Shown here piece by piece: positions 71 through 47,100 of a stretch of DNA of 64,000 nt (within the stretch, counting starts at the first letter, position 1; each line of letters opens with the position of its first letter). A program made the position numbers and the translations under genes. Origin of the DNA: Blastocatellia bacterium (GTDB taxonomy: Bacteria > Acidobacteriota > Blastocatellia > RBC074); contig DAOLKO010000017.1 of assembly GCA_035331565.1 (NCBI GenBank), forward strand, positions 30,832-94,831, written 5' to 3'. The notes under the pieces were generated by a model, which saw only the letters and a list, made by a program, of their open reading frames with translations, was not told the DNA's origin and did no database searches.

Positions 71-1738
71 ATGTTCAATCGTCAATTTAGACGGGCAGTC
101 GCGCCGATTGCCGTCATTCTGATTCTGTGCCTGACAGTGGGCGCGCAACTTCCCGCGGTCGAAAAAGTTGACCTGGAAATGATGAAAAAAATCCGCGCGG
201 AAGGTCTGGAGCGCTCGCAGGTGATGGATACGCTCAGTTGGCTGACCGATGTCAACGGCGCGCGTTTGACGGGTTCGCCCGGCATGAAAGCCGCCAATGA
301 ATGGACGAAAAAGCGGCTGATGGAATACGGCCTGGTCAACGCCAATGTCGAAGCCTGGGGACAATTCGGTCGCGGCTGGTCTTTCGACAAAGTTTCCATT
401 CACGTCACCGCGCCCACGGCGTTTCCCGTCATCGGCTATCCCAAAGCCTGGACGCCTGGAACCAACGGCCCCGTCGTGGCCGAAGCCGTTTTCGCCGACA
501 TCAACAACGATGCGGACTTTGAAAAATACAAAGGCAAACTGAAAGGCGCGATTGTGCTGACTTCGCCCATGCGCCCGGTCAATGCACAATTCAAAGCCCC
601 CGGCGTCCGCTACACCGACGAAGAGTTGTTGAAAATGGCCAACGACGAAGCCGAACAACGAGGACGCGGCAATTTCAGCGACGAGCAGCGGCAACAAATG
701 ATTCAAGCCCAACAAATCGCCGCCAAGAAAACAGCCTTCTTAAAATCCGAGGGAGCCGCCGTGCTGGTGGACATTGACCGCATCAACAACAACGTCAACG
801 GCGGAACGGTTTTCGTCGGCAGCGGCGGCCCGCGCGACAAGGATCAACCCCAATCGCTTCCTTCGGTCACCATCGCCATCGAACATTACGGACGCATCAT
901 TCGCATGCTGCAAAAAGGCGTGAAGGTCAAAATGGAAGTTGAGGTCAAGGCGCAGTTCCACGACAACGATCTGATGGCTTACAACACCGTCGCCGAAATT
1001 CCCGGCACTGACAAAAAAGATGAACTCGTTATGCTCGGCGGTCACCTGGATTCCTGGCACACCGGAACCGGCGCGACGGACAACGCCGCCGGCTGCGCCG
1101 TCGCCATCGAAGCCGTCCGCATTTTGAAATCGCTCGGCGTGCAGCCGCGCCGCACTATCCGCATCGGCCTGTGGAGCGGCGAAGAGCAAGGCTTGTTGGG
1201 TTCGCGCGGTTATGTCGCCAAACACTTCGGCTCACGTCAGTCCGCGCCCGGACAACAGGGCGGCGGCGGCGGCAGACCCGGTGGTGGAGGCGGCGGCGGC
1301 GGATTCGGCGGCCCGCAAGGCCCAGTGGTTCCGCTGCCGGATTACGACAAGTTTTCGGTCTATTTCAATCTGGACAACGGCACGGGCAAGGTTCGCGGCG
1401 TTTACCTGCAAGGCAACGAAGCCGCGCGTTCGATTTTCCGCGCCTGGCTTGCGCCGTTTAACGATCTGGGCGCTTCGACGCTGACCATTCGCAACACCGG
1501 CGGCACGGATCATTTGTCCTTCGACGGCATCGGCCTGCCCGGCTTCCAGTTCATTCAGGATGAAGTCGAATACAGCACCCGGACGCACCATTCCAACATG
1601 GACGTTTTTGACCGCATGCAAGCCGACGATATGAAACAGGCGGCGACGATCATGGCGGCCTTCGTTTACAACGCGGCCATGCGCGACGATAAATTCCCGC
1701 GCAAACCCTCCGCAGGCGCGCAAACCGCCAACCGCTAA
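71..1738 (+). CDS. Secreted M28-family metallopeptidase (PA-domain aminopeptidase-like)
   Basis: ORF 44..1738; likely start ATG 71 ([21 protein letters not shown] signal peptide) with a GGAGG RBS 8 nt upstream. M28 motifs [38 protein letters not shown]. Paralog at 24296..25993. Confidence 0.85.
1258..1316 (+). repeat. (GGC)n-rich simple-sequence tract encoding a poly-Gly insert ([22 protein letters not shown]) inside the M28 peptidase
   Basis: Read directly from the sequence; the insert is absent from the paralog at 24296..25993. Confidence 0.85.
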
Positions 1739-1812: not shown

Positions 1813-1950
1813 CCACTGCGACAACGTTGGCCAAGCGGCAGAGGTGCGCGGAAACGGATTTTTCTCTTCACGGATGCCTGTGGTAGCATCCATTTGCTTT
1901 TACGAACCAAATTGTTTCCAAATTCAGAAGGAGAGACCTTAAGGAACGCT

Positions 1951-2967
1951 ATGGCTATCTCATTGCGCCAGGCCCTGAGTGTGGGCGGCTACATCTTCAA
2001 ACAAAAATTCAAAGGCAATAAACGCTACCCGCTGGTATTGATGCTGGAACCGCTCTTCCGCTGCAATCTGGCCTGCGTCGGCTGCGGCAAGATTCAGTAT
2101 CCGGGCGAGATTTTGAAAAAGAACATGTCGCCCGAACAGGCTTTCAAAGCGATTGACGAATGCGGCGCGCCTGTCGTCACCATCGCCGGCGGCGAACCGT
2201 TGCTTCATCCTGAAATCGAAGTAATTGCCAAAGGCATGGTCGAGCGCAAAAAGTTCGTCTACCTTTGCACCAATGCCATTCTGCTCGAAAAAAACATGCA
2301 TCGCTTTGAACCCTCGCCTTATCTGACCTTCAACGTCCATCTGGACGGAATGAAAGAGCGTCACGATCACGCGGTGGATCGCGACGGCATTTTCGACATC
2401 GCCGTCAGCGCCATCAAAAAAGCCAAAGCTGCGGGCTTTCGCGTCAACACCAACACCACTGTCTTCGAGGGCGAAACCGCCGAAGGCTTGCACGAAATGT
2501 TCGATATGCTGATGGAACTCGGCGTGGATGGGATGACGATTGCGCCCGGCTACAGTTATGAAAAAGCGCCGGATCAGGATCACTTCCTTTCGCGCCGGCA
2601 AACCAACGCGCTGTTTCGTCAGGTGCTCGCTCCGCTTTCATCGAAAAAAGGCAAGAAATGGGTTTTCAATCAATCGCCGCTCTATCTGAAATTCCTGATG
2701 GGCGAGATTGAGTACGAATGCACGCCCTGGGGAAGTCCGAATTACAACATCTTCGGCTGGCAAAAACCCTGCTATATGTTCAGCGACGGCTACGCCCAGA
2801 CCTTCAAGGAATACATGGAAGAGACAACCTGGGAAAACTACGGACGCAAAAGCGGCAATGCCAAATGCCAGGATTGCATGATGCATTGCGGCCACGAACC
2901 GACCGCCGCCATTGACGCCACCAGCAATCTGAAAGGCATGCTGGTTTCTATTCGCGGTTTGAGTTAA
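1951..2967 (+). CDS. hpnH: Hopanoid biosynthesis radical SAM protein HpnH (adenosylhopane synthase)
   Basis: ORF 1894..2967; start ATG 1951 (MAISLRQ) with a [22 protein letters not shown] radical-SAM cluster motif. Near full-length similarity to known HpnH ([16 protein letters not shown]...GWQKPCY). Confidence 0.9.
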
Positions 2968-3120: not shown

Positions 3121-4524
3121 TCAAAGAACTTTGCTGATGGCCACGCGAAAGCCCTGATCGTTGCGGCGCAGCGTGGGATGGCCATAATCAATGCGAAAGG
3201 CCGAACGGCAGTTGACGGCCGCGTCCACCCACGAACAACCGCGAATTACGCGCGGACGATCCCAGTGGGCGTGCTTCAATATCAGGCCGCTGAACTTCAG
3301 CGTTTGCTCTTCACCGATTTCGGTTTTCAGCCTGGCAAGAATCTTTTCTTCTCCGACAAACACATAATCCTTGAGCCGCCGCAGTTTGGTCAGCGTGTCA
3401 TCCGGCATCCCCTGCGACCGCAAGACGACCAGCGTCTGTTCGACAATGTTGAAGCCCTGCTCCTGTCCTTCCCACGAAGACCCGTCCGTCGGCGCGCCTT
3501 GATAATTCGTATGCCATTGATCCTGGCACCATTCCCAGACGTTGCCGTACATATCGAACAAGCCGAAAGCGTTGGCGCGTCCCAGACTGCCGACCGGAAC
3601 GGTTTTCTCGCGGTATTCGCCTGCGCCCTGCGTTTTCCAGTAAGGGTGATTGCCGTTGTAATTGACGATGGCCGGCGTGATGGTTTCGCCGAAAGCATAA
3701 GGCAGGGAGCTTCCGGCGCGGGCGGCGTATTCCCATTCCGCTTCGGTCAACAGGCGATATGCTCTGCCGGTTCGACGTTCCAACCGGGCGCAGAATTCCT
3801 GTGCTTCAAACCAGGAGACGGTTTCCACCGGCAATTTGTCGTCGTCTTTGAAAGACGATGGATCGGGCTTCAATTCAATTTTGACTTTCGGCCATTGGGC
3901 GACGACGCGCCATTGTTCCCGCGTGATTTCGTATTTGCCCGCCCAGAATTGCGCGACCTTCACCTGATGCAGCGGACGTTCGTTTTCCGGGCCGAGTTCG
4001 CCGGACGCCGCGCCCATGGTGAAAACGCCGCCGGGAACTTCCACCAATTCCAGCCAGATGTCCGAATCCAGCGGTTCGCGAAAAGTCTTCACGGTCTTTT
4101 CCGGCTCGTCCTTGATCTTGCCTCGCCTGTCGTAAAGCGCCGTTTTGAAGCGGATCGTTTCCAGTACCGGCGCAATAGTTTTCGGAGTTTTGCCGGCCGT
4201 AGGCGCGGGCGGAACAGAGTCGGCGTCCAACGTCAGCACAGGCGGCACTGTCGGCGCTGAAACCAAAACCGGCGCAAGCGCGATGGAAGAAACGTCCGCA
4301 ATTTCCGGCAACGAAATCGGCTTAGGTTTTGCGGCAGACGTTTCGGCAACTTTTACGGCTTTGGGTTTTGAAGTCTTTCGTTCAGGGACGAGGATCACGC
4401 CGCCTTGCTTTTGCGCCGCGCCGAACCAACACGAACCGAGCGCGAACAGTAAACACAGCGTCCAGGCGCTGCGAACGGCGAGTCGCCGAAGATGTGTTTG
4501 GGCTTTCATGAAAGGAATCTCCAA
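3121..4524 (-). CDS. FGE-sulfatase (SUMF1-like) domain protein, copy B; N-terminal TM/signal, Pro-rich linker; ~75-aa insertion inside the FGE-like domain
   Basis: FGE-sulfatase domain hallmarks (WLELVEVPGGVFTMG, RVVAQWPK, GNVWEWCQD, RGCSWVDAAVNCRSAFR...GFRVA). Alternative start at ATG 4509. Paralog of 6646..7866. Confidence 0.8.
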   Translation of the reverse strand: MEIPFMKAQTHLRRLAVRSAWTLCLLFALGSCWFGAAQKQGGVILVPERKTSKPKAVKVAETSAAKPKPISLPEIADVSSIALAPVLVSAPTVPPVLTLDADSVPPAPTAGKTPKTIAPVLETIRFKTALYDRRGKIKDEPEKTVKTFREPLDSDIWLELVEVPGGVFTMGAASGELGPENERPLHQVKVAQFWAGKYEITREQWRVVAQWPKVKIELKPDPSSFKDDDKLPVETVSWFEAQEFCARLERRTGRAYRLLTEAEWEYAARAGSSLPYAFGETITPAIVNYNGNHPYWKTQGAGEYREKTVPVGSLGRANAFGLFDMYGNVWEWCQDQWHTNYQGAPTDGSSWEGQEQGFNIVEQTLVVLRSQGMPDDTLTKLRRLKDYVFVGEEKILARLKTEIGEEQTLKFSGLILKHAHWDRPRVIRGCSWVDAAVNCRSAFRIDYGHPTLRRNDQGFRVAISKVL

Positions 4525-4544: not shown

Positions 4545-6512
4545 TCAGTTGCCGGCAAATTTCAAGTTGATGTCGAAAATCAGAGGCTGCGGACTTTCCG
4601 TGTTGCTGACGACGTTAGCCGTTGTGCCGCGTCCGCTGAAATCTTCAATGCTGCCGGGCGCAATTGCGCCGAGTTGGGATTGAAGCGATTTGATCGGCTC
4701 GGGTTGGGATTTCACCTGCCTGACCGCCGCGTCGAAGTTCTCTATTCGATTGCGCGACATCACCACGGTGAATCGCAACTGTTCGCCCGCCGCCAGACCG
4801 CGAATTCTTTGTCCGTTGGGAAAGACGAATTCACGCCCGGCGTCCAGTCGCGCACCGCCGGGCAAAAACGCCGTCAATTGTCCGCTGCGTCCGTCCAGCG
4901 CGAGCAAGTACAAATAACCGTCTGCGCGGGATTTGAAATGAAGCTTGAATTCCCGCGCAGACGGCAGTTCGTGATTCGCAACGGCCAGTGACTGCCCACC
5001 GGTGAATTGCTCGAACCAATACTGCAACTGTTCGGGCACGGGCGAAGGCGAAGCGGCGGGTCGAGTCGGCGCGGGCGCGGGCGGCAATGGTTGCGAAGCC
5101 GTTTTGGTCTCGCTTTGCTGCCACAGCCAAAAAACCAGCAAGATCATCAAAACACTGACCGCAGCCGCAGCCCAACGCGCGCGCGGCAGACGAGCATTTT
5201 GAGTTTTCGGCTTCAGCGTCGGGGGCGGCAAATCTGTGTTTTTTTTCGGCGGAAACACTTCAACCGGCGCTTCGACAGGCAGAGGTTTCTCTTCCCTGCT
5301 CTTTCGCGCGTCTTCCGACTTCGCTGCCTCTGTCCGAAGCGATTTTCCAGCCCGGCCAAGTTCCAGCCGCTGTTGGTCCTGAAGTCGTTCTTCTTCCAAT
5401 TCGCGCAACGCGGCTTGACGGCGGCTTTGCTGCAACTGGCGGCGGCGTTCTTCGGCTTGTTTGCGTTGATGTTCCAGGTCGCGTTGGCGTGCTTCACGAT
5501 GGCGTTGTTCTTCTTCGCGGCGGCGCTGTTCGGCGAGAAAACGTTTCTCTTCATCGCGGCGGCGCTGTTCGGCTTCGCGCTGCTCGTTGGCGGCTATTTC
5601 CTGCTGACGGCGGCGCTCGGTTTCAATTTGAAGCTTGCGCTCTTCCGCCTCACGGCGGCGTTTCGCCTCCGCCTCTGAATCTTGCGCAATGGAAGGGTTT
5701 TCGCCTTCCTGTCGCGCCTGTCGCAAAGCCTCGCGCATGACGTTGGCGCTTTGAAAGCGGGCTTCCCGGTTAAGCGCCAAAGCGCGAAAAATCACCTCGG
5801 CCACGGCTTGCGGCACTTGCGGGTTGAGTTCGTACAGCGGAGTCAGCGGATCGGGCACTTTATAACGCAAGACATCCGCGCGCATTTTGGCGTTGTCAGG
5901 CAATTGGCCCGACAACAGGAAATGCAGCGTCGCACCGAGCGAATATAAATCGCTGCGCGCATCCGTGGCCTCCCCGTTCAACTGTTCCAGCGGCAGATAA
6001 TTCAAAGCCTCCGTCTGAAGCTTGCCCGACGCCGCAACTCCAACGCTCAAGTCCGTCAGAAACAGCGCGCCTTGCGGCGTCAGCTTCAGCGCTTGCGGTT
6101 TGATGCCGCGATGAAAAATCGGCGGTTGCCGGTCGTGCAGGCAATTCAGCGCGTCCAGCAGCCTGTCGGCCCAGTCCGCCACCTGCCGCCAGTCAAATGG
6201 TTTTGCGTCCTTGTTCAACAGTTCGGCCAGACTTTGGCCGGGAATGAATTCGGCTACCAGAAATTGACTACTGCCTTCGATGAAAGAATCCAGGATTTTC
6301 GGCAGCGCCGGATGTTGCAGCTTTGCCAACGCGGCGACTTCTTGTTGAAAGCGTTTGTGAGCTTCAGGCGAGCGGGAAAAAGTTTCCCTGATCTCCACGG
6401 CGGCGGGTTCCAGATGCGTGGCCTCGGCTTCGTAAATAATCGCGGTGTCGCCTTGCACCAGCAGGCGTTTTATCAGATAGCGGGTTTGCAAGAGGGTTCC
6501 ATTCGCCAACAT
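4545..6512 (-). CDS. Predicted pseudokinase (Ser/Thr-kinase fold with degenerate catalytic motifs), ER/K-rich charged helix, TM helix, extracytoplasmic C-terminal domain
   Basis: Paralog of the kinase at 7883..9757 (both begin MLANGTLLQ.RYLIKR). Gly-loop is VQGDTAIIY, VAIK is VEIRE, catalytic loop is HRGIKPQALKL (D to G, N to A), DFG is DLS, APE is LPLEQ. Confidence 0.75.
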   Translation of the reverse strand: MLANGTLLQTRYLIKRLLVQGDTAIIYEAEATHLEPAAVEIRETFSRSPEAHKRFQQEVAALAKLQHPALPKILDSFIEGSSQFLVAEFIPGQSLAELLNKDAKPFDWRQVADWADRLLDALNCLHDRQPPIFHRGIKPQALKLTPQGALFLTDLSVGVAASGKLQTEALNYLPLEQLNGEATDARSDLYSLGATLHFLLSGQLPDNAKMRADVLRYKVPDPLTPLYELNPQVPQAVAEVIFRALALNREARFQSANVMREALRQARQEGENPSIAQDSEAEAKRRREAEERKLQIETERRRQQEIAANEQREAEQRRRDEEKRFLAEQRRREEEQRHREARQRDLEHQRKQAEERRRQLQQSRRQAALRELEEERLQDQQRLELGRAGKSLRTEAAKSEDARKSREEKPLPVEAPVEVFPPKKNTDLPPPTLKPKTQNARLPRARWAAAAVSVLMILLVFWLWQQSETKTASQPLPPAPAPTRPAASPSPVPEQLQYWFEQFTGGQSLAVANHELPSAREFKLHFKSRADGYLYLLALDGRSGQLTAFLPGGARLDAGREFVFPNGQRIRGLAAGEQLRFTVVMSRNRIENFDAAVRQVKSQPEPIKSLQSQLGAIAPGSIEDFSGRGTTANVVSNTESPQPLIFDINLKFAGN

Positions 6513-6645: not shown

Positions 6646-7866
6646 TCAAAAAGGTTTGCCGACCGCGACCCGAAAGCCTTGATCCTTGCGCCGCACCTGA
6701 GCGGTGCCATAAGTCACGCGCCTTGCAGACCGGCAATCAGGCGCGGCGTCTTCATAAGAACCGCCACGAATCACCGGCCCTGCATTTCCGCTCATCCAGG
6801 CAGAGCCATCCGCAGGAGCGCCGTCATAGTTCGGATGCCATCTGTCCTGACACCATTCCACGACATTGCCGTGCATATCGAATAATCCAAATGCATTGGC
6901 TTTTCCAAGACTTCCCACCGCAACTGTTTTCCGGCGTCCTTCCGCCTTGATTTGAAAAGGCCAAAAAGGCTGGCTCCCGTCATAATTCACAATGCCCACA
7001 TTGATGGTTTCGCCGAAAGCGAATGCTGTGGTTGTTGCCGCGCGGGCGGCATATTCCCATTCAGCCTCTGTCGGCAAACGATATTCCCTGCCGGTGGCGG
7101 CGGCCAAACGAGCGCAAAACTCCACGGCTTCGTCCCAGGTAATTCTTTCGGCGGGTAGATTTTTGTCCCCTTTGAAAGCTGACTGATCTTCCAGATTGAT
7201 CTTCACTTTGGGCAGTTCGGCAACCGCACGCCATTGTTCCTGGGTGACTTCAAACTGACCGATCCAGAATTTTTTGATGGCCACTTTATGCACCGGACGC
7301 TCTTCTTTCGTTTGTCCATTGCGGTCGGTTTCCCCTTCCGGCGTCCCCATCAGGAACTCTCCGCCGGGAATCTCCACCATTTCCAACCAAACGTTGTCAT
7401 TGATGTACTCACGATAAAACCTGACGGATTTGGCGCTTTCCTGCGTGATCTTTTCCCGCCTGTCCATCGTCAAGGTCTTGAAGTTAAAGACCTCAATCAA
7501 TGGCGGCGGCGGTTTCGGAATCACCGTTTCGTCAATCAACGGTAAATTTGGAAAGAACCAAGTCCCTTCCCATCGGAAAAAACCTGCCAACCGCGGACGT
7601 TGGCTGTAAGCAATTTCAGGCAAACTGACAGGTGTCGGCGTGAGCAATGGTTTTGGTGTCGGTGATGGAGTTGGCTTCACGGTTGGTTTGGGCGATGGTC
7701 GTGGAGTGGTTTTCGCCGTGGTGGAAGTTTTACCTCCCGGTTTGATTCTGATTCCCTGAGCATCAGCTCGCCCCCAAAAGCTGAAATGAAACAACAAACA
7801 AGCAGCCATGCAGATAGCGAGGGCGCTAAAAACCACGACCAACCTGATCTGCCTTGTCAGTTTCAT
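6646..7866 (-). CDS. FGE-sulfatase (SUMF1-like) domain protein, copy A; N-terminal TM, Pro/Thr-rich linker
   Basis: ORF 6646..8010 trimmed to ATG 7866 (MKLTRQIRLVVVF) with a GGAGGA RBS. FGE-domain motifs (WLEMVEIPGGEFLMG, GNVVEWCQD, RGGSYEDAAPDCRSARR...GFRVA). Confidence 0.8.
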   Translation of the reverse strand: MKLTRQIRLVVVFSALAICMAACLLFHFSFWGRADAQGIRIKPGGKTSTTAKTTPRPSPKPTVKPTPSPTPKPLLTPTPVSLPEIAYSQRPRLAGFFRWEGTWFFPNLPLIDETVIPKPPPPLIEVFNFKTLTMDRREKITQESAKSVRFYREYINDNVWLEMVEIPGGEFLMGTPEGETDRNGQTKEERPVHKVAIKKFWIGQFEVTQEQWRAVAELPKVKINLEDQSAFKGDKNLPAERITWDEAVEFCARLAAATGREYRLPTEAEWEYAARAATTTAFAFGETINVGIVNYDGSQPFWPFQIKAEGRRKTVAVGSLGKANAFGLFDMHGNVVEWCQDRWHPNYDGAPADGSAWMSGNAGPVIRGGSYEDAAPDCRSARRVTYGTAQVRRKDQGFRVAVGKPF

Positions 7867-7882
7867 GTTCCTCCGATTTCTT

Positions 7883-24295: not shown

Positions 24296-25993
24296 TTACC
24301 TGGCCGTGGCTTTACGCGGCAGCTTTTCGTCGCGCATGGCAGCGTTGTACAAAAACGCGGCCATGATCGTCGCCGCCTGTTTCATATCGTCGGCTTGAAT
24401 GCGGTCGAAGACGTCCATGTTGGAATGGTGCGTGCGCGTGTCGTATTCGACCGGGTCTTGAATGAACTGGAAGCCGGGCAGGCCGATGCCGTCAAACGAC
24501 AGGTGATCGGTGCCGCCGGTGTTGGAGATGGTCAGCGTGGTTGCCCCCAGGTCTTTGAAGGGCATCAGCCAGTCGCGGAAGATCGGGCGGACGGCTTCGT
24601 TGCCTTGCAAATACACGCCGCGAATCTTGCCCGTGCCGTTGTCCAGATTGAAATAGGCCGAGAACTTCTCGTAGTCCGGCTTGGTGTTGATTTTGGCGTT
24701 CGGACCTCCGCCCATCATCGCGGCCATTTCGGCTTCGGGCGAACCGTCGTCGCCGCGCGAACCCAAATGCTGTTTGACGTAAGCGCGCGAACCGAACAAG
24801 CCTTGCTCTTCGCCGCTCCACAGCCCCACGCGGATGGTGCGGCGCGGTTGCAGGTTCAAGGCTTTCAAAATGCGCACGGCTTCCATCGCCGCCGCGCAGC
24901 CCGCGCCGTTGTCCGTCGCGCCGGTTCCGCTGTGCCAGGAATCCATGTGCGCGCCAACCATCACGATTTCATCTTTTTTGTCGGTGCCGGGGATTTCACC
25001 AATGGTGTTGTAAGAGTTCAAATCTTCGCCGTGGAATTGCACGTCCAGATTGATGCGCGCTTGCAGCTTTTCGCCGGCTTGCAGCATGCGGATCAAACGA
25101 TTGCAGTGTTCGGCGGCGATGGTCACTTGCGGCAGATTGGCGGGCGCGTCCTTGTCCCATGGGTTCACCTTGCCCATAAACAAGTCCATTATCACTTCCA
25201 TCGGCGCACCATTTTTGACTTCTTTCGGGATCGAAGCGTTTTCCAGAAAGATCGTGCCGCCGTCGCCGGAGCGCGAAGGCGTCAGGAACATCGCCGCGCC
25301 TTCATCCAAAAAGAACTTCAGTTTTTTGGCGTCGAGAATGGCACTTTTGATGAACTCCTGCATTTGCGGATTGGCGGCCATCGCCGCCGGGCCGCCGGAG
25401 CGCGCTTTGGCGGGGTCTTGCGCATCAGCCAGTTGCAGCAGGTCTTTTTCGGTCAACCGCGTGCCGGGCGCGTCAAAGCGGGCTTTGACGTTGCGAACAG
25501 GCGCGCTCAGCACAATCTTGCCTTTCAGTTGGCCTTTGTATTTGGCCAGTTCGGCTTCATCTTTGGCTTCGACATAAACAATGTCCGCCGTCAACGGGCC
25601 GTTGGTTCCCAGCGACCAAGCTTTTGGATATGCGATCAGCGGGATGGCCTGCGGCGCGATGATTTCCGCCGAAAACGATTTCAGCGTCCAGCCGCGTCCG
25701 AATGGCCCCCACGGTTCCAGATGCGCTTCCATGCCCCACTCTTTCATCTTGTCGCGCGTCCATTCATTGGCGCGTTTCAGGTTGGGCGAAGCGGTCAGGC
25801 GCGGGCCGATAACGTCAGTCAAATAGCTCAGGGTTTGCATCACCTGCGAACGGTTCATGCCTTCGTCTTTGATGCGTTCAATGGGATCGTTTGAATTTTT
25901 TGCCTGCGCCTGCTGTTGCTGAGCGTGAGACGGCCAGCCGGTAACGCTCAGCGCAAAAAGCAAAATTGCGACGGCAATTCTGTTGCGAGTCAT
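24296..25993 (-). CDS. Secreted M28-family metallopeptidase (paralog of 71..1738)
   Basis: [38 protein letters not shown]. Lacks the poly-Gly insert. Confidence 0.85.
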
Positions 25994-44101: not shown

Positions 44102-47100
44102 ATGATTCGACACTCTTTCTTTTTTGTTGCCGGGCGCGACCGAGCGCGCCGGTTGAGTTTCACATTCGCGGCCGCTTGTCTGCTGGGATTGGCGCTGCTT
44201 TTCGCGCTAAGCCTTCGCCGTGCGACCACGGCCCGCGCGATGTTCGCCACCATCACCGTCACCACCACCGCCGACACTGTCGCCGCCGACGGCCAATGCA
44301 GCCTGCGCGAAGCGATTCAGGCGGCCAACACCAACACCGCCGTCAACGAATGTGCGGCGGGCGCGGCGGGACTCGATACGATTCAATTCAATATCGGCTC
44401 CGGCACTCCAACCATTAATGTGACCAGCGCGCTGCCGACCGTCAGCGATCCGGTCATCATCAACGGCAACACCGGCGGCGCGACGCGCGTGGAATTAAAC
44501 GGCACGAGTGCGGGCGCGGGCATCAGCGGACTGACGATCACAGCGGGCGGCAGCACAGTGCAGGCGTTGGTCATCAATCGCTTCACAGCCAACGGCATTT
44601 CCTTGACGACCAGCGGCGGCAATGCGGTCAGAGGCTGCATCATCGGCCTGAATTCCGCCGGAACGACGGATCAGGGAAACACGCTTGTTGGCGTTTCCGT
44701 CAGCAGCACGGGCAACACCATAGGCGGAACCGAAGCCGGCGACGGCAATGTCATTTCCGGCAACAACAGTGCGGGAATCTTTCTGACCGGCGCGTCCAAC
44801 ACTGTGCAAGGCAACATCATCGGCTTGAACGCGGCGGGAACGGCAGCCGTTGCCAACAGCGTTGGCGGTATTCAAATCAACAACGCGGCCAATAATGTCA
44901 TCGGCGGTACGACGGCAGCGGCGCGCAACATCATTTCCGGCAACACCACGAGCGGGATTCGCATTTTGAACGCCGGAGCATCCAACACGCTGGTGCAAGG
45001 CAATTACATTGGCCCAGACCTCACAGGCGCACTTGACCTGGGCAATACGACGGACGGCGTGTTGATTGACACTGCCGCGCACGACAACACCATCGGCGGC
45101 GCGACGGCAGGTGCGGGAAACGTCATTTCCGGCAATAACAGCGACGGCATCGAAATCAATGGGGCAGCCGCAACTGCCAATTTGGTGCAAGGCAATTTCA
45201 TCGGCACCAATGCGACAGGAACCGGCGCGCTGGGCAACAGCCTGGCTGGGGTGTTTGTCACGGACGCTGCCAACACAACCATCGGCGGGACGACTGCCGG
45301 AGCGCGGAACATCATTTCCGGCAACAACAGCGGCGTTAATCTGAGCGGAGCGAACGCCGCCAACAATCTGGTGCAGGGAAATTACCTCGGCGCGGACGTG
45401 AATGGAACGGCCAGTCTGGCCAATGCCGTCAGCGTGACCATCGCCACCGCCCACGACAACATCATCGGCGGAACCGCCGCAGGTGCAGGAAATGTCATCA
45501 CCAGCATGAGCATTGGCGGACCGACCAATCTGATTCAGGGAAATTTGATCGGCACGAATGCGGCGGGAACGGCTGTGCTTGGTGTCGGTAACGGCGGCGT
45601 GACGATTTCCGCCGATAACAACACCTTTGGCGGAACCACGGCAGCAGCGCGCAACATTGTCGGCGGCCTGACCATCAGCGGCGCGAACAATACCGTTCAG
45701 GGCAATTACGTGGGCACGGATATCACCGGCACCGCAATACTGGGAAACGGAAGCGGCCTGGCTGTCAGCGGCAACAATAACATCATCGGCGGAACAGTCG
45801 CGGGCGCGAAAAATGTGATTTCCGGCAGCTTCTCCACCGGCGTTACGGTGAGCGGAACTGCCAATCAACTACAGGGCAATTTGATTGGAACCAACGCTGC
45901 CGGAACCAATACATTGAGCAATTCCGGCATTGGCCTGTACCTGCTAGGCTCGAATAACACCATCGGCGGAACGACGGCGGCGGCGCGTAACGTGATTGCC
46001 GCGAGCGGCGCGCAAGGCATATTCATCGAAGGCAATTCCAACACCGTGCAGGGCAACTTCATCGGCACGGACATCAATGGGACGGCGAATCTGGGCAACG
46101 TGATGGACGGCATCCGGCTGACCTTCGGCGCACAAGACAATCTGATTGGCGGAACCGTCGCGGGCGCGGGCAATCTCATCGCCTTCAGCGGGCAACGCGG
46201 CGTTTCGCTCAGCTTTTCCTCGACGGCGCAAAACCGGATTTTGGGAAACTCGATTCACTCGAGCGGCAGTCTAGGCATTGATCTGGGGAACAACGGCGTG
46301 ACGGCCAACGATCTGGGCGACGGCGACGGCGGCCCGAACAATCTGCAAAACTTTCCGGCGCTGGTGTCGGTGAGTTCGGGCGTCGGCACAACGACCGTCG
46401 CCGCCGGGTTGAGCAGTGCCGCCGGCACGCTCTACCGAATCGAATTCTTTTCCAATCCATCGTGCGACATTTCAGGCAACGGCGAAGGGCAGGTTTTTCT
46501 GGGTACGGCGGACGTGACGACCGACGCCAACGGCAACACGCCGATCAACGCCGTCTTGCCGGGAAATTTGGCTCCCGGGCACGTGGTGGCGATGACGGCG
46601 ACGGATCCGGCGGGCAACACCTCGGAGTTTTCCGCTTGCGGGGTTTGCACCTTCGGTTTGTCGCCGAGCGCGCAGCCATTTCAAGTGCCCGGCGGCAGCA
46701 ACAGTTTCAACATCACCAGTCAGATCGGCTGTCCGTGGACGGCGGTCAGCAACGATCCCTGGATCACCATCAATTCAGGCGCAAACGGATTCGGCAACGG
46801 CACGGTTGCTTACACCGTGGCCGCCAATGCCGGAGCATCGGCGCGCGTCGGTTCGATCACGGTCGCCGGGCAAACCTTCTTTGTCAGTCAGGCGGCGGTC
46901 GGCGAATTGATTTCGACGGATTTTTCCGGCGGCATTCCGCCCGGTTGGGTAGTCGCTCACGGCGGAACGGGATTTTATCCGGGCGGACAGCCCGCCACCT
47001 GGACGACGGCCAATCCCTGCAATCGCGTGATTCCGTCGCCCTTCGCGCCGCCCTTCGCGATTGTGGATTCGCAATGCGCCGTTCCGCCCGCCACTCAGGA

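Follow-up and report, generated by a model that had tools for sequence, protein, structure and literature searches.

The window, a 64,000-nt stretch of the genome of a Blastocatellia bacterium (assembly GCA_035331565.1, contig DAOLKO010000017.1, positions 30,832–94,831), carries on its minus strand two tandem gene pairs, A and B, each consisting of a kinase homolog and a protein resembling the formylglycine-generating enzyme (FGE). The FGE-like domain of pair B is split by an in-frame insert, which was analysed here together with the family of protein modules to which it belongs. Both kinases match the Pfam family Pkinase, and both downstream proteins match PF03781 with E-values of about 1e-50 (1e-50 for FGE-B and 8.7e-50 for FGE-A). 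The four genes are arranged as follows:

FGE-B, 3121–4524, minus strand: open reading frame (ORF) of 467 residues coding for an exported or membrane-anchored FGE-sulfatase-fold protein, with its PF03781 domain split by the module
Kinase-B, 4545–6512, minus strand: membrane-spanning Ser/Thr-kinase homolog with the degenerate motifs VEIRE, HRGIKPQA and TDLS
FGE-A, 6646–8010, minus strand: paralog without the module
Kinase-A, 7883–9757, minus strand: paralogous kinase with intact VAVKE, HRD and DFG motifs

The true start of FGE-B is likely M6 at 4509, which gives 462 residues as in its ortholog P0001, and that of FGE-A is likely M49 at 7866; residue numbers of FGE-B refer to the 467-residue ORF throughout. 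FGE-B was predicted to comprise an N-terminal hydrophobic helix, a low-confidence linker and the split PF03781 domain, and the C-terminal part of kinase-A gave a weak match to DUF4384 (Pfam, E = 0.0018).

In BLASTP, FGE-B aligned with FGE-A at 47% identity through GAPTDGSSWEGQEQG (residue 357) and the alignment picked up again at VIRGCSW (residue 426), with no counterpart in FGE-A for the stretch between these two points. Against the PF03781 profile, FGE-A produced one continuous match (profile positions 4–254) and FGE-B two, with the break at residue 361. A first-pass annotation, made from the letters of this DNA alone, had proposed an insertion of about 75 residues at 3249–3468 relative to FGE-A, lying between the GAPTDGSSW and RVIRGCSW blocks of FGE-B. 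The insertion is real and falls inside the PF03781 domain, and the peptide then quoted agrees with the minus-strand translation of 3249–3468, but the net size is smaller: 74 residues separate the conserved W and V in FGE-B, compared with seven in FGE-A and the other relatives, so the net insertion amounts to 67 codons (201 nt) at 3259–3459, slightly inside the former limits. Deletion of 3259–3459 in silico yielded the loop W-EGQERPR-V, with the usual seven residues. A profile search found one module copy within the window, and its parts were mapped as follows:

Module-coding element, 3268–3459, minus strand: 192 nt, 64 codons, Q356–A419; match to the module hidden Markov model with E = 3.5e-26 over columns 2–67
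Downstream flank, 3259–3267, minus strand: codons H420-W421-D422, the place of the downstream 9-bp target copy in young copies
Upstream flank, 3460–3468, minus strand: codons G353-Q354-E355, the place of the upstream target copy
Terminal inverted repeat, arm 1, 3273–3282: GCTTCAATAT, coding for part of ILK at the C-terminal end of the module
Terminal inverted repeat, arm 2, 3446–3455: ATGTTGAAGC, coding for F-N-I at the N-terminal end of the module

The two 10-nt arms are 90% complementary. As a target copy, the H420-W421-D422 flank has decayed (3/9 matches), yet (H/S)WD is conserved among the orthologs. A shifted WEG/WDR pairing of the flanks, with 6/9 matches by eye, was dropped, as it needs a non-canonical loop length.

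The lower GC content attributed earlier to the insert holds as a number (0.542 versus 0.577 in the rest of the gene) but not as a sign of foreignness. The value corresponds to the 10th percentile of 201-nt windows across the FGE-B gene, and the GC content at third codon positions is higher in the insert (0.73) than in the rest of the gene (0.65), so that the dip reflects a peptide rich in K, E, I and L and not a foreign composition. Compositional foreignness was rejected on these two grounds.

The module family and its nested copies

A family profile was constructed from the nine inserts of the FGE-B clade and searched against 1.84 billion representative proteins, of which 524 matched at E ≤ 1e-3 and 120 at E ≤ 1e-10; the family was thus recovered with a seed taken from the FGE-B-clade inserts alone. 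The unit spans about 64 residues, with a consensus of about SFKITEQSLENLKSEGVPDDVLEKLQSLKNQEFTGEEKFLDILKTTIGDEQTVKYKSLILKHA. It lies nested or terminal in hundreds of unrelated proteins and is often found in tandem, a single protein having as many as 15 stretches. At least four lineages possess it: Acidobacteriota, Ca. Moduliflexus, Ca. Magnetomoraceae and Ca. Scalindua. Across 91 of the matched proteins, 121 different Pfam families were recognised, with HSP70, TssG, penicillin-binding domains, RAMPs, ParA, cyclases, TIR, PD40 and LptD_N among them, and none of the 121 covers the module. From these matches, both the existence and the breadth of the module family are well supported. The tandem protein P0124 as query gave seven matches, and a word-indexed search with the module alignment against 5.8 billion proteins returned nothing at E ≤ 1e-5, the 67-residue profile being too short for a database of that size. 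Neither the module nor a domain-encoding element nested in RpoB, Hsp70 or Cas7-11 was described in the literature covered by our searches, some of which were aimed at this combination.

Structure prediction of the insert, which had been suggested as a check, yielded a strand, two helices, a strand and two further helices within the AlphaFold 2 (AF2) model of FGE-B, at values of the predicted local distance difference test (pLDDT) of 83–97, compared with a mean of 84 for the entire model. The predicted elements are strand 357–359, helices 362–370 and 375–384, strand 388–390, and helices 392–403 and 405–418. A domain-only AF2 model of the module reached a pLDDT of 86, and no fold in the Protein Data Bank matched the module-only model at E ≤ 1e-3 in Foldseek. 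The conserved core consists of F4, T7, L14, P20, L27, F41, I49-G50, Y57, I61-L62 and H64-A65, of which the window copy keeps all except T7V, F41I and Y57F. Apart from the His of column 64 (53%), there is no conserved polar motif, the remainder being core hydrophobics plus T7, P20, G50 and A65. Scanned against Pfam and NCBIfam, the insert and 63 module instances were assigned to no family and gave scattered sub-threshold matches, with single Pfam matches to RAD51D_N, DUF2795 and DUF5789. A comparison with the helix-hairpin-helix (HhH) fold produced these same three sub-threshold matches and Foldseek probabilities ≤0.25.

At the DNA level, pattern scans of genome and metagenome collections retrieved 13 loci (4 + 9), among which the module is nested in these hosts:

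L011: RpoB (Rpb2 domain 6, Rpb2_6)
L013: ATPase domain of Hsp70
L007: BrkB/YihY membrane protein
L014: caspase-domain protein
L009 and L010: GH5-like protein of Ca. Moduliflexus
L008 and L015: large membrane proteins, L008 from an Acidobacteriota metagenome-assembled genome

With the element defined as profile columns 2–65, 16 of the 18 full-length copies, the window copy among them, measured 192 nt, and the other two 189 and 195 nt. In three loci the 9-nt flanks match each other at 8/9 positions: GAATCTGCG / GAATCTGCT in L007, AAAGTTAAG / AAATTTAAG in L011, and GATCTAAGG / GATCTAAGA in L012. The 9-mers of these loci differ from one another, and the L014 flanks match at 6/9. An offset scan showed the flank-match signal to be unique to offset 0,0, with a background probability of at least 8/9 matches of 0.0017. 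The element plus one flank, 192 + 9 = 201 nt or 67 codons, equals the net insertion in FGE-B. Copies residing in four different host genes and in different assemblies are 82–88% identical in DNA and 72–78% in protein, with the differences spread over all codon positions.

The element ends read about GGCATGTTTCAAAAT and form an imperfect inverted repeat (TTCAAAAT...ATTTTGAA), with 14–15 of 21 positions matching in L007, L011 and L012, 11 in L013 and 10 in the window copy. In the centroid structure, no stem other than the terminal one pairs both element ends. Since the conserved end peptides FKI and ILK mostly explain the inverted repeat, it is suggestive only. A long-hairpin palindrome of the type found in Rickettsia palindromic elements (RPEs) was rejected on DNA folding z-scores of −0.9 and 0.0, with the terminal stem alone recurring. 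In L017 (2375–2715) a module copy is split by a frameshift, and in L019 (about 999–1130) an internal deletion joins VLKK to TIGDEQ; judging from these lesions, both are decaying copies.

Among solved entries, the profile matched one strongly, the type III-E CRISPR effector SbCas7-11 (gRAMP; 7zol_B), with E = 3.5e-19 and three tandem repeats at residues 1073–1262. These repeats fall inside the insertion (INS) domain, residues 1031–1390, which is without resolved structure; reportedly, no SbCas7-11 structure has shown density for INS, its role has been described as unknown, and the INS of DiCas7-11 is dispensable. INS resembles the FGE-B insert in being nested in a host domain, Cas7.4, but it is larger and variable between orthologs, and the module match was shown for the Scalindua protein only. 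A second type III CRISPR context for the module was observed in Ca. Magnetomoraceae gMMP-15, where a 199-residue module protein (P0272; L020, 4144–4743) is encoded in a type III CRISPR-Cas locus between the Cas10/Cmr2-palm and RAMP genes.

In two further loci (L023, 4786–9637, and L027, 2157–6958), one gene of a tandem trio of DUF4384 genes, beside a CHASE2-cyclase, has the module at its N-terminus. A DUF4384-like C-terminal part is likewise present in the kinases of the window, which makes two co-occurrences of the module with DUF4384 signalling. L027 further contains (6959–9847) a DnaB helicase gene with an intein and a LAGLIDADG endonuclease according to its Pfam list.

History of the FGE-B insert and its host domain

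FGE-B has 5094 homologs at E ≤ 1e-10. A survey of the orthologs for presence or absence of the insert, likewise suggested beforehand, revealed that it is not private to the window gene: eight full-length orthologs (P0001–P0008, 55–90% identity) carry it at the same site and with conserved sequence, and FGE-A, its orthologs and all other aligned relatives, including the next outgroups (P0010–P0018, P0029 and others), are insert-free. A neighbour-joining analysis of the FGE domain, from which the insert had been removed, recovered the nine insert-bearing proteins as monophyletic in 189 of 200 bootstraps; their clade was sister to the FGE-A clade, and insert-free proteins lay outside both. On this topology, a single gain of the insert at the base of a small clade is well supported, and the named homologs suggest that the clade consists of Blastocatellia-type Acidobacteria. 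Codon analysis of five orthologs gave ratios of non-synonymous to synonymous substitution rates (dN/dS) of 0.13–0.25 for the insert versus 0.08–0.17 for the FGE domain; by this measure, purifying selection acts on the insert as it does on the remainder of the domain.

Kinase-B has the hallmarks of a pseudokinase, as the VAIK Lys, the HRD Asp and DFG are all lost (VEIRE, HRGIKPQA and TDLS). The kinases beside the insert-bearing orthologs of L001 and L002 have intact VAVKE, HRDIKPQN and DFG motifs, that of L006 reads HCD/NFG, and that of L004 reads HRG/DLS with the Lys kept. Since the insert-bearing orthologs of L001 and L002 adjoin intact kinases, kinase decay is later than, and independent of, the insert. 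The first-pass annotation had taken the insert as a mark of further divergence of the pseudokinase-linked copy. This view is not supported, given the conservation in eight orthologs, the purifying selection, the intact kinases alongside, the insert in both tandem FGE genes of L002 and the uninformative GC content: the insert is better read as a long-standing trait, kept by selection, of a single FGE-like clade than as a sign of pseudogene-like decay. The kinases themselves can be ordered in a graded decay series, from L001 (5731–7959) through L006 (3313–5088) and L004 (2201–4165) to the window (4545–6512), and, read in this way, the ortholog kinases are a natural time series of pseudokinase formation.

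In L002 (GCA_021155085.1), both tandem FGE genes (8001–9494 and 11992–13392) carry the insert and both kinases are intact. The product of the first gene, P0008, adjoins a kinase-A ortholog (81% identity over the kinase domain) yet groups with the FGE-B clade, which suggests reshuffling of, or gene conversion between, the tandem pairs.

The full FGE-B model matched solely FGE-fold proteins in Foldseek, with E-values of about 1e-14 against FGE structures and with PvdO (5hha; E = 3.7e-19) as the best solved relative. True FGE/SUMF1 enzymes have a copper-binding catalytic Cys pair, C336 and C341 in the human protein, within the pattern GGS-x-C-x4-C. This pair had been reported as missing from both copies, and we concur: the C336 position is occupied by Asp in FGE-A (GGSYED) and FGE-B (GCSWVD). 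When the C-terminus of human SUMF1 was aligned with both proteins in MAFFT, the single Cys of A and B in a "DC/NC" context falls at or near C341, and the pair is incomplete. FGE-A has one Cys between GGS and the C-terminus, and FGE-B has an extra one in RGCSW, outside the CxxxxC spacing. This residue, Cys430 (window 3235–3237), occupies the place of the second Gly in the conserved motif RGGSW; it is Cys in the window protein and in P0001–P0006, and Gly in P0007, P0008 and all insert-free relatives; it could form a new disulfide or an insert-linked contact.

Fusions with Pkinase, caspase and TIR domains occur among the close homologs, in keeping with the earlier proposal that the two proteins resemble non-catalytic, ligand-binding FGE-like domains. 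FGE-A and FGE-B are probably extracytoplasmic, non-catalytic ligand binders of the FGE fold that are paired with membrane Ser/Thr kinases, a partnership deduced from the N-terminal hydrophobic helix of the FGE proteins and from the transmembrane segment that precedes the DUF4384-like C-terminal part of the kinases. A lipoprotein signal in FGE-B (LGSC) was rejected, as its Cys is not conserved in the orthologs. The ligand-sensing "FGS" C-type-lectin-fold domains of bacterial conflict systems, which are fused to kinase-, caspase- and TIR-type domains, share with PvdO, T. denticola TvpA and the present proteins an FGE-sulfatase fold without the catalytic pair. Unlike the FGS sensors, the FGE-fold protein is here a separate exported gene product encoded downstream of a membrane kinase and not a fusion, and FGE-B adds a nested module.

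By analogy with related targets of diversity-generating retroelements, we infer that the insert sits in the loop just ahead of the RVIRGxSW strand, at the start of the region that is variable or ligand-binding in those targets. No template-like repeat of the FGE C-terminus indicative of such a retroelement was found within the window. The module in FGE-B most likely started as a tolerated passenger that is now structurally integrated, and a role in binding of a ligand or of the kinase ectodomain is possible.

Origin of the insert

We consider it moderately probable that the FGE-B insert is an in-frame insertion, ancient and now fixed, of a single copy of the widespread 64-residue module, which would have spread like a MITE (a miniature transposable element with inverted repeats). 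Under this scheme, the module would propagate as DNA, in the form of a non-autonomous 192-bp element whose insertion duplicates 9 bp of the target site, and it would survive within genes by landing in surface loops and folding autonomously. The FGE-B copy would be a tolerated decoration that turned into a structurally integrated part and may add a binding surface. Since its gain, purifying selection has maintained it, and kinase-B decayed later, in a separate event.

Several observations weigh against this scheme. The flank duplication is found in three, perhaps four, of eight independent insertions; it is absent from L008, L009, L013, L018 and the window copy (3/9), and the Hsp70 copy (L013) has flanks matching at 2/9 although its DNA is 82–83% identical to the others. 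Synonymous resampling of L007, L011 and L012 gave 11–13 of 21 matching end positions as expected versus the 14–15 observed (P = 0.04–0.12). The dN/dS of the copies in four different host genes is 0.3–0.6, thus below 1 even when they are young. In RpoB, a 9-bp duplication would leave the loop one residue short of the spacing in other bacteria, and many module copies are terminal or tandem, which ordinary duplication could explain. A viral collection contained no module copy detectable by a peptide pattern or a 20-nt DNA pattern. Finally, no single genome was shown to carry many near-identical copies and no autonomous transposase partner was identified, a genome-wide census not having been obtained for either. 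Of the readings for the young copies, transposition is the most economical, yet it is unproven, since duplications are missing in the Hsp70 copy, the older copies and the window copy, the RpoB loop does not fit, and terminal and tandem copies exist.

A possible, if less probable, explanation is an ordinary promiscuous domain, small and helical with an interaction role or HhH-like, which was gained by recombination or domain shuffling for an added function, the flank repeats being microhomology or chance. The strong purifying selection in the FGE-B lineage and the confidently predicted autonomous fold would suit such a domain, as would the many terminal, interdomain or tandem copies, the dN/dS below 1 even for the most similar copies, a terminal inverted repeat mostly due to conserved residues, the weak matches to the small helical DUF2795, DUF5789 and RAD51D_N, and the recurrence beside DUF4384 signalling genes, as in the window. 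It accounts poorly for three independent 8/9 duplications of 9 bp, with different sequences and exactly at the predicted boundaries, for the near-constant length of 192 nt, and for a DNA identity above the protein identity among nested copies. Moreover, an added function shared by hosts as different as the housekeeping proteins RpoB and Hsp70 is hard to imagine, and the conserved positions form a hydrophobic core with Gly, Pro and Thr that, the His of column 64 aside, includes no polar or catalytic motif.

It is improbable that the kinase-linked FGE subfamily had the insert from the start and that the FGE-A lineage lost it by a precise deletion, the alternative that the first-pass annotation had itself named as refuting its view. 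The presence of the insert in both tandem FGE genes of L002, where P0008 lies beside the kinase-A ortholog, would fit, but P0007 and P0008 both group with the FGE-B clade (189/200), the next outgroups and every other aligned homolog are insert-free, and the loss would have to be an exact 201-nt deletion that restored the canonical seven-residue loop. We give even less credence to a spliced element, such as a mini-intein or intron, or to an assembly artefact, either of which would leave the mature protein without the segment. The insert interrupts a conserved domain, and the modules interrupt RpoB and Hsp70 as inteins do. However, an intein Hint fold requires at least about 130 residues, for which 64–67 are too few, no intein family of Pfam matched, and the junctions, Q/G and A/H, have neither a Cys, Ser or Thr nucleophile nor His-Asn. 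Purifying selection at the amino-acid level and the packing as a folded domain in the AF2 model speak likewise against removal by splicing, and the presence of the insert in eight independently assembled orthologs against an artefact.

Returning to spread as a DNA element, its most general form holds that 192-bp transposable elements found across phyla encode a self-folding 64-residue domain tolerated in nearly any protein, including RpoB, Hsp70 and Cas7-11, with the FGE-B insert as a domesticated copy and the Cas7-11 INS partly built from copies. We regard this broader statement as evenly balanced between true and false.

By analogy, the nearest counterparts of the module element would be the RPEs, in-frame coding repeats present in many genes (Ogata et al. 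2000 Science, 2002 Genome Res; PMC10969869). Set side by side by description, both are short and non-autonomous, lie in frame in unrelated genes and code for a conserved peptide, and for both the tolerance is attributed to landing at protein surfaces. The RPEs, however, measure about 100–150 bp, are limited to Rickettsia, are strongly palindromic and have no known defined globular domain, whereas the module element has 192 bp, short imperfect terminal repeats and no significant overall hairpin, and is confidently predicted to encode a 64-residue domain that occurs in at least four lineages and in tandem arrays. Intragenic repeat or MITE fusions have also been described for PARCEL (PMC2996958) and for ERIC, BOX and QMITE (PMC10969869). 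These resemble the module in that repeat DNA gives in-frame coding sequence to diverse proteins across lineages, but they provide low-complexity or amphipathic stretches, whereas the module is a compact domain of mixed alpha/beta type whose hydrophobic core is conserved.

If the module does spread as DNA, it would be, next to the case of Rickettsia, a second and much wider instance of selfish DNA persisting by encoding a harmless protein part, with that part being a genuine globular domain in several phyla. It would further provide a concrete mechanism for nested domain insertions in bacterial proteins, a ready-made and naturally tested "insert-anywhere" domain for protein engineering, and, for the insertion domain of Cas7-11, an origin that can be tested; the role of that domain has been called a mystery in the Cas7-11 literature.

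Neighbouring features of the window

A gene with radical-SAM and DUF3463 domains (window 1894–2967), a combination typical of hopanoid HpnH, is convergent to FGE-B, and this arrangement is kept in L004 (5673–6689) and L005 (3626–4642). Upstream synteny is kept in L001 and L002, encompassing an ABC transporter with Wzt_C, a glycosyltransferase-methyltransferase fusion, Lgt, LspA and IleRS. Inverted repeats of 75–84% identity link window positions 200–1713 and 24303–25864; they lie within ORFs of 564 residues (44–1738) and 565 residues (24296–25993), which look like diverged paralogs in opposite orientation and, judging by translation alone, resemble aminopeptidases. At 44600–46200, a coding array of roughly 180–190-nt repeats of the NxIGGT...NVISGN type suggests a parallel beta-helix repeat protein, and more repeat families are found at 48.2–49.2 kb and 54.1–55.2 kb.

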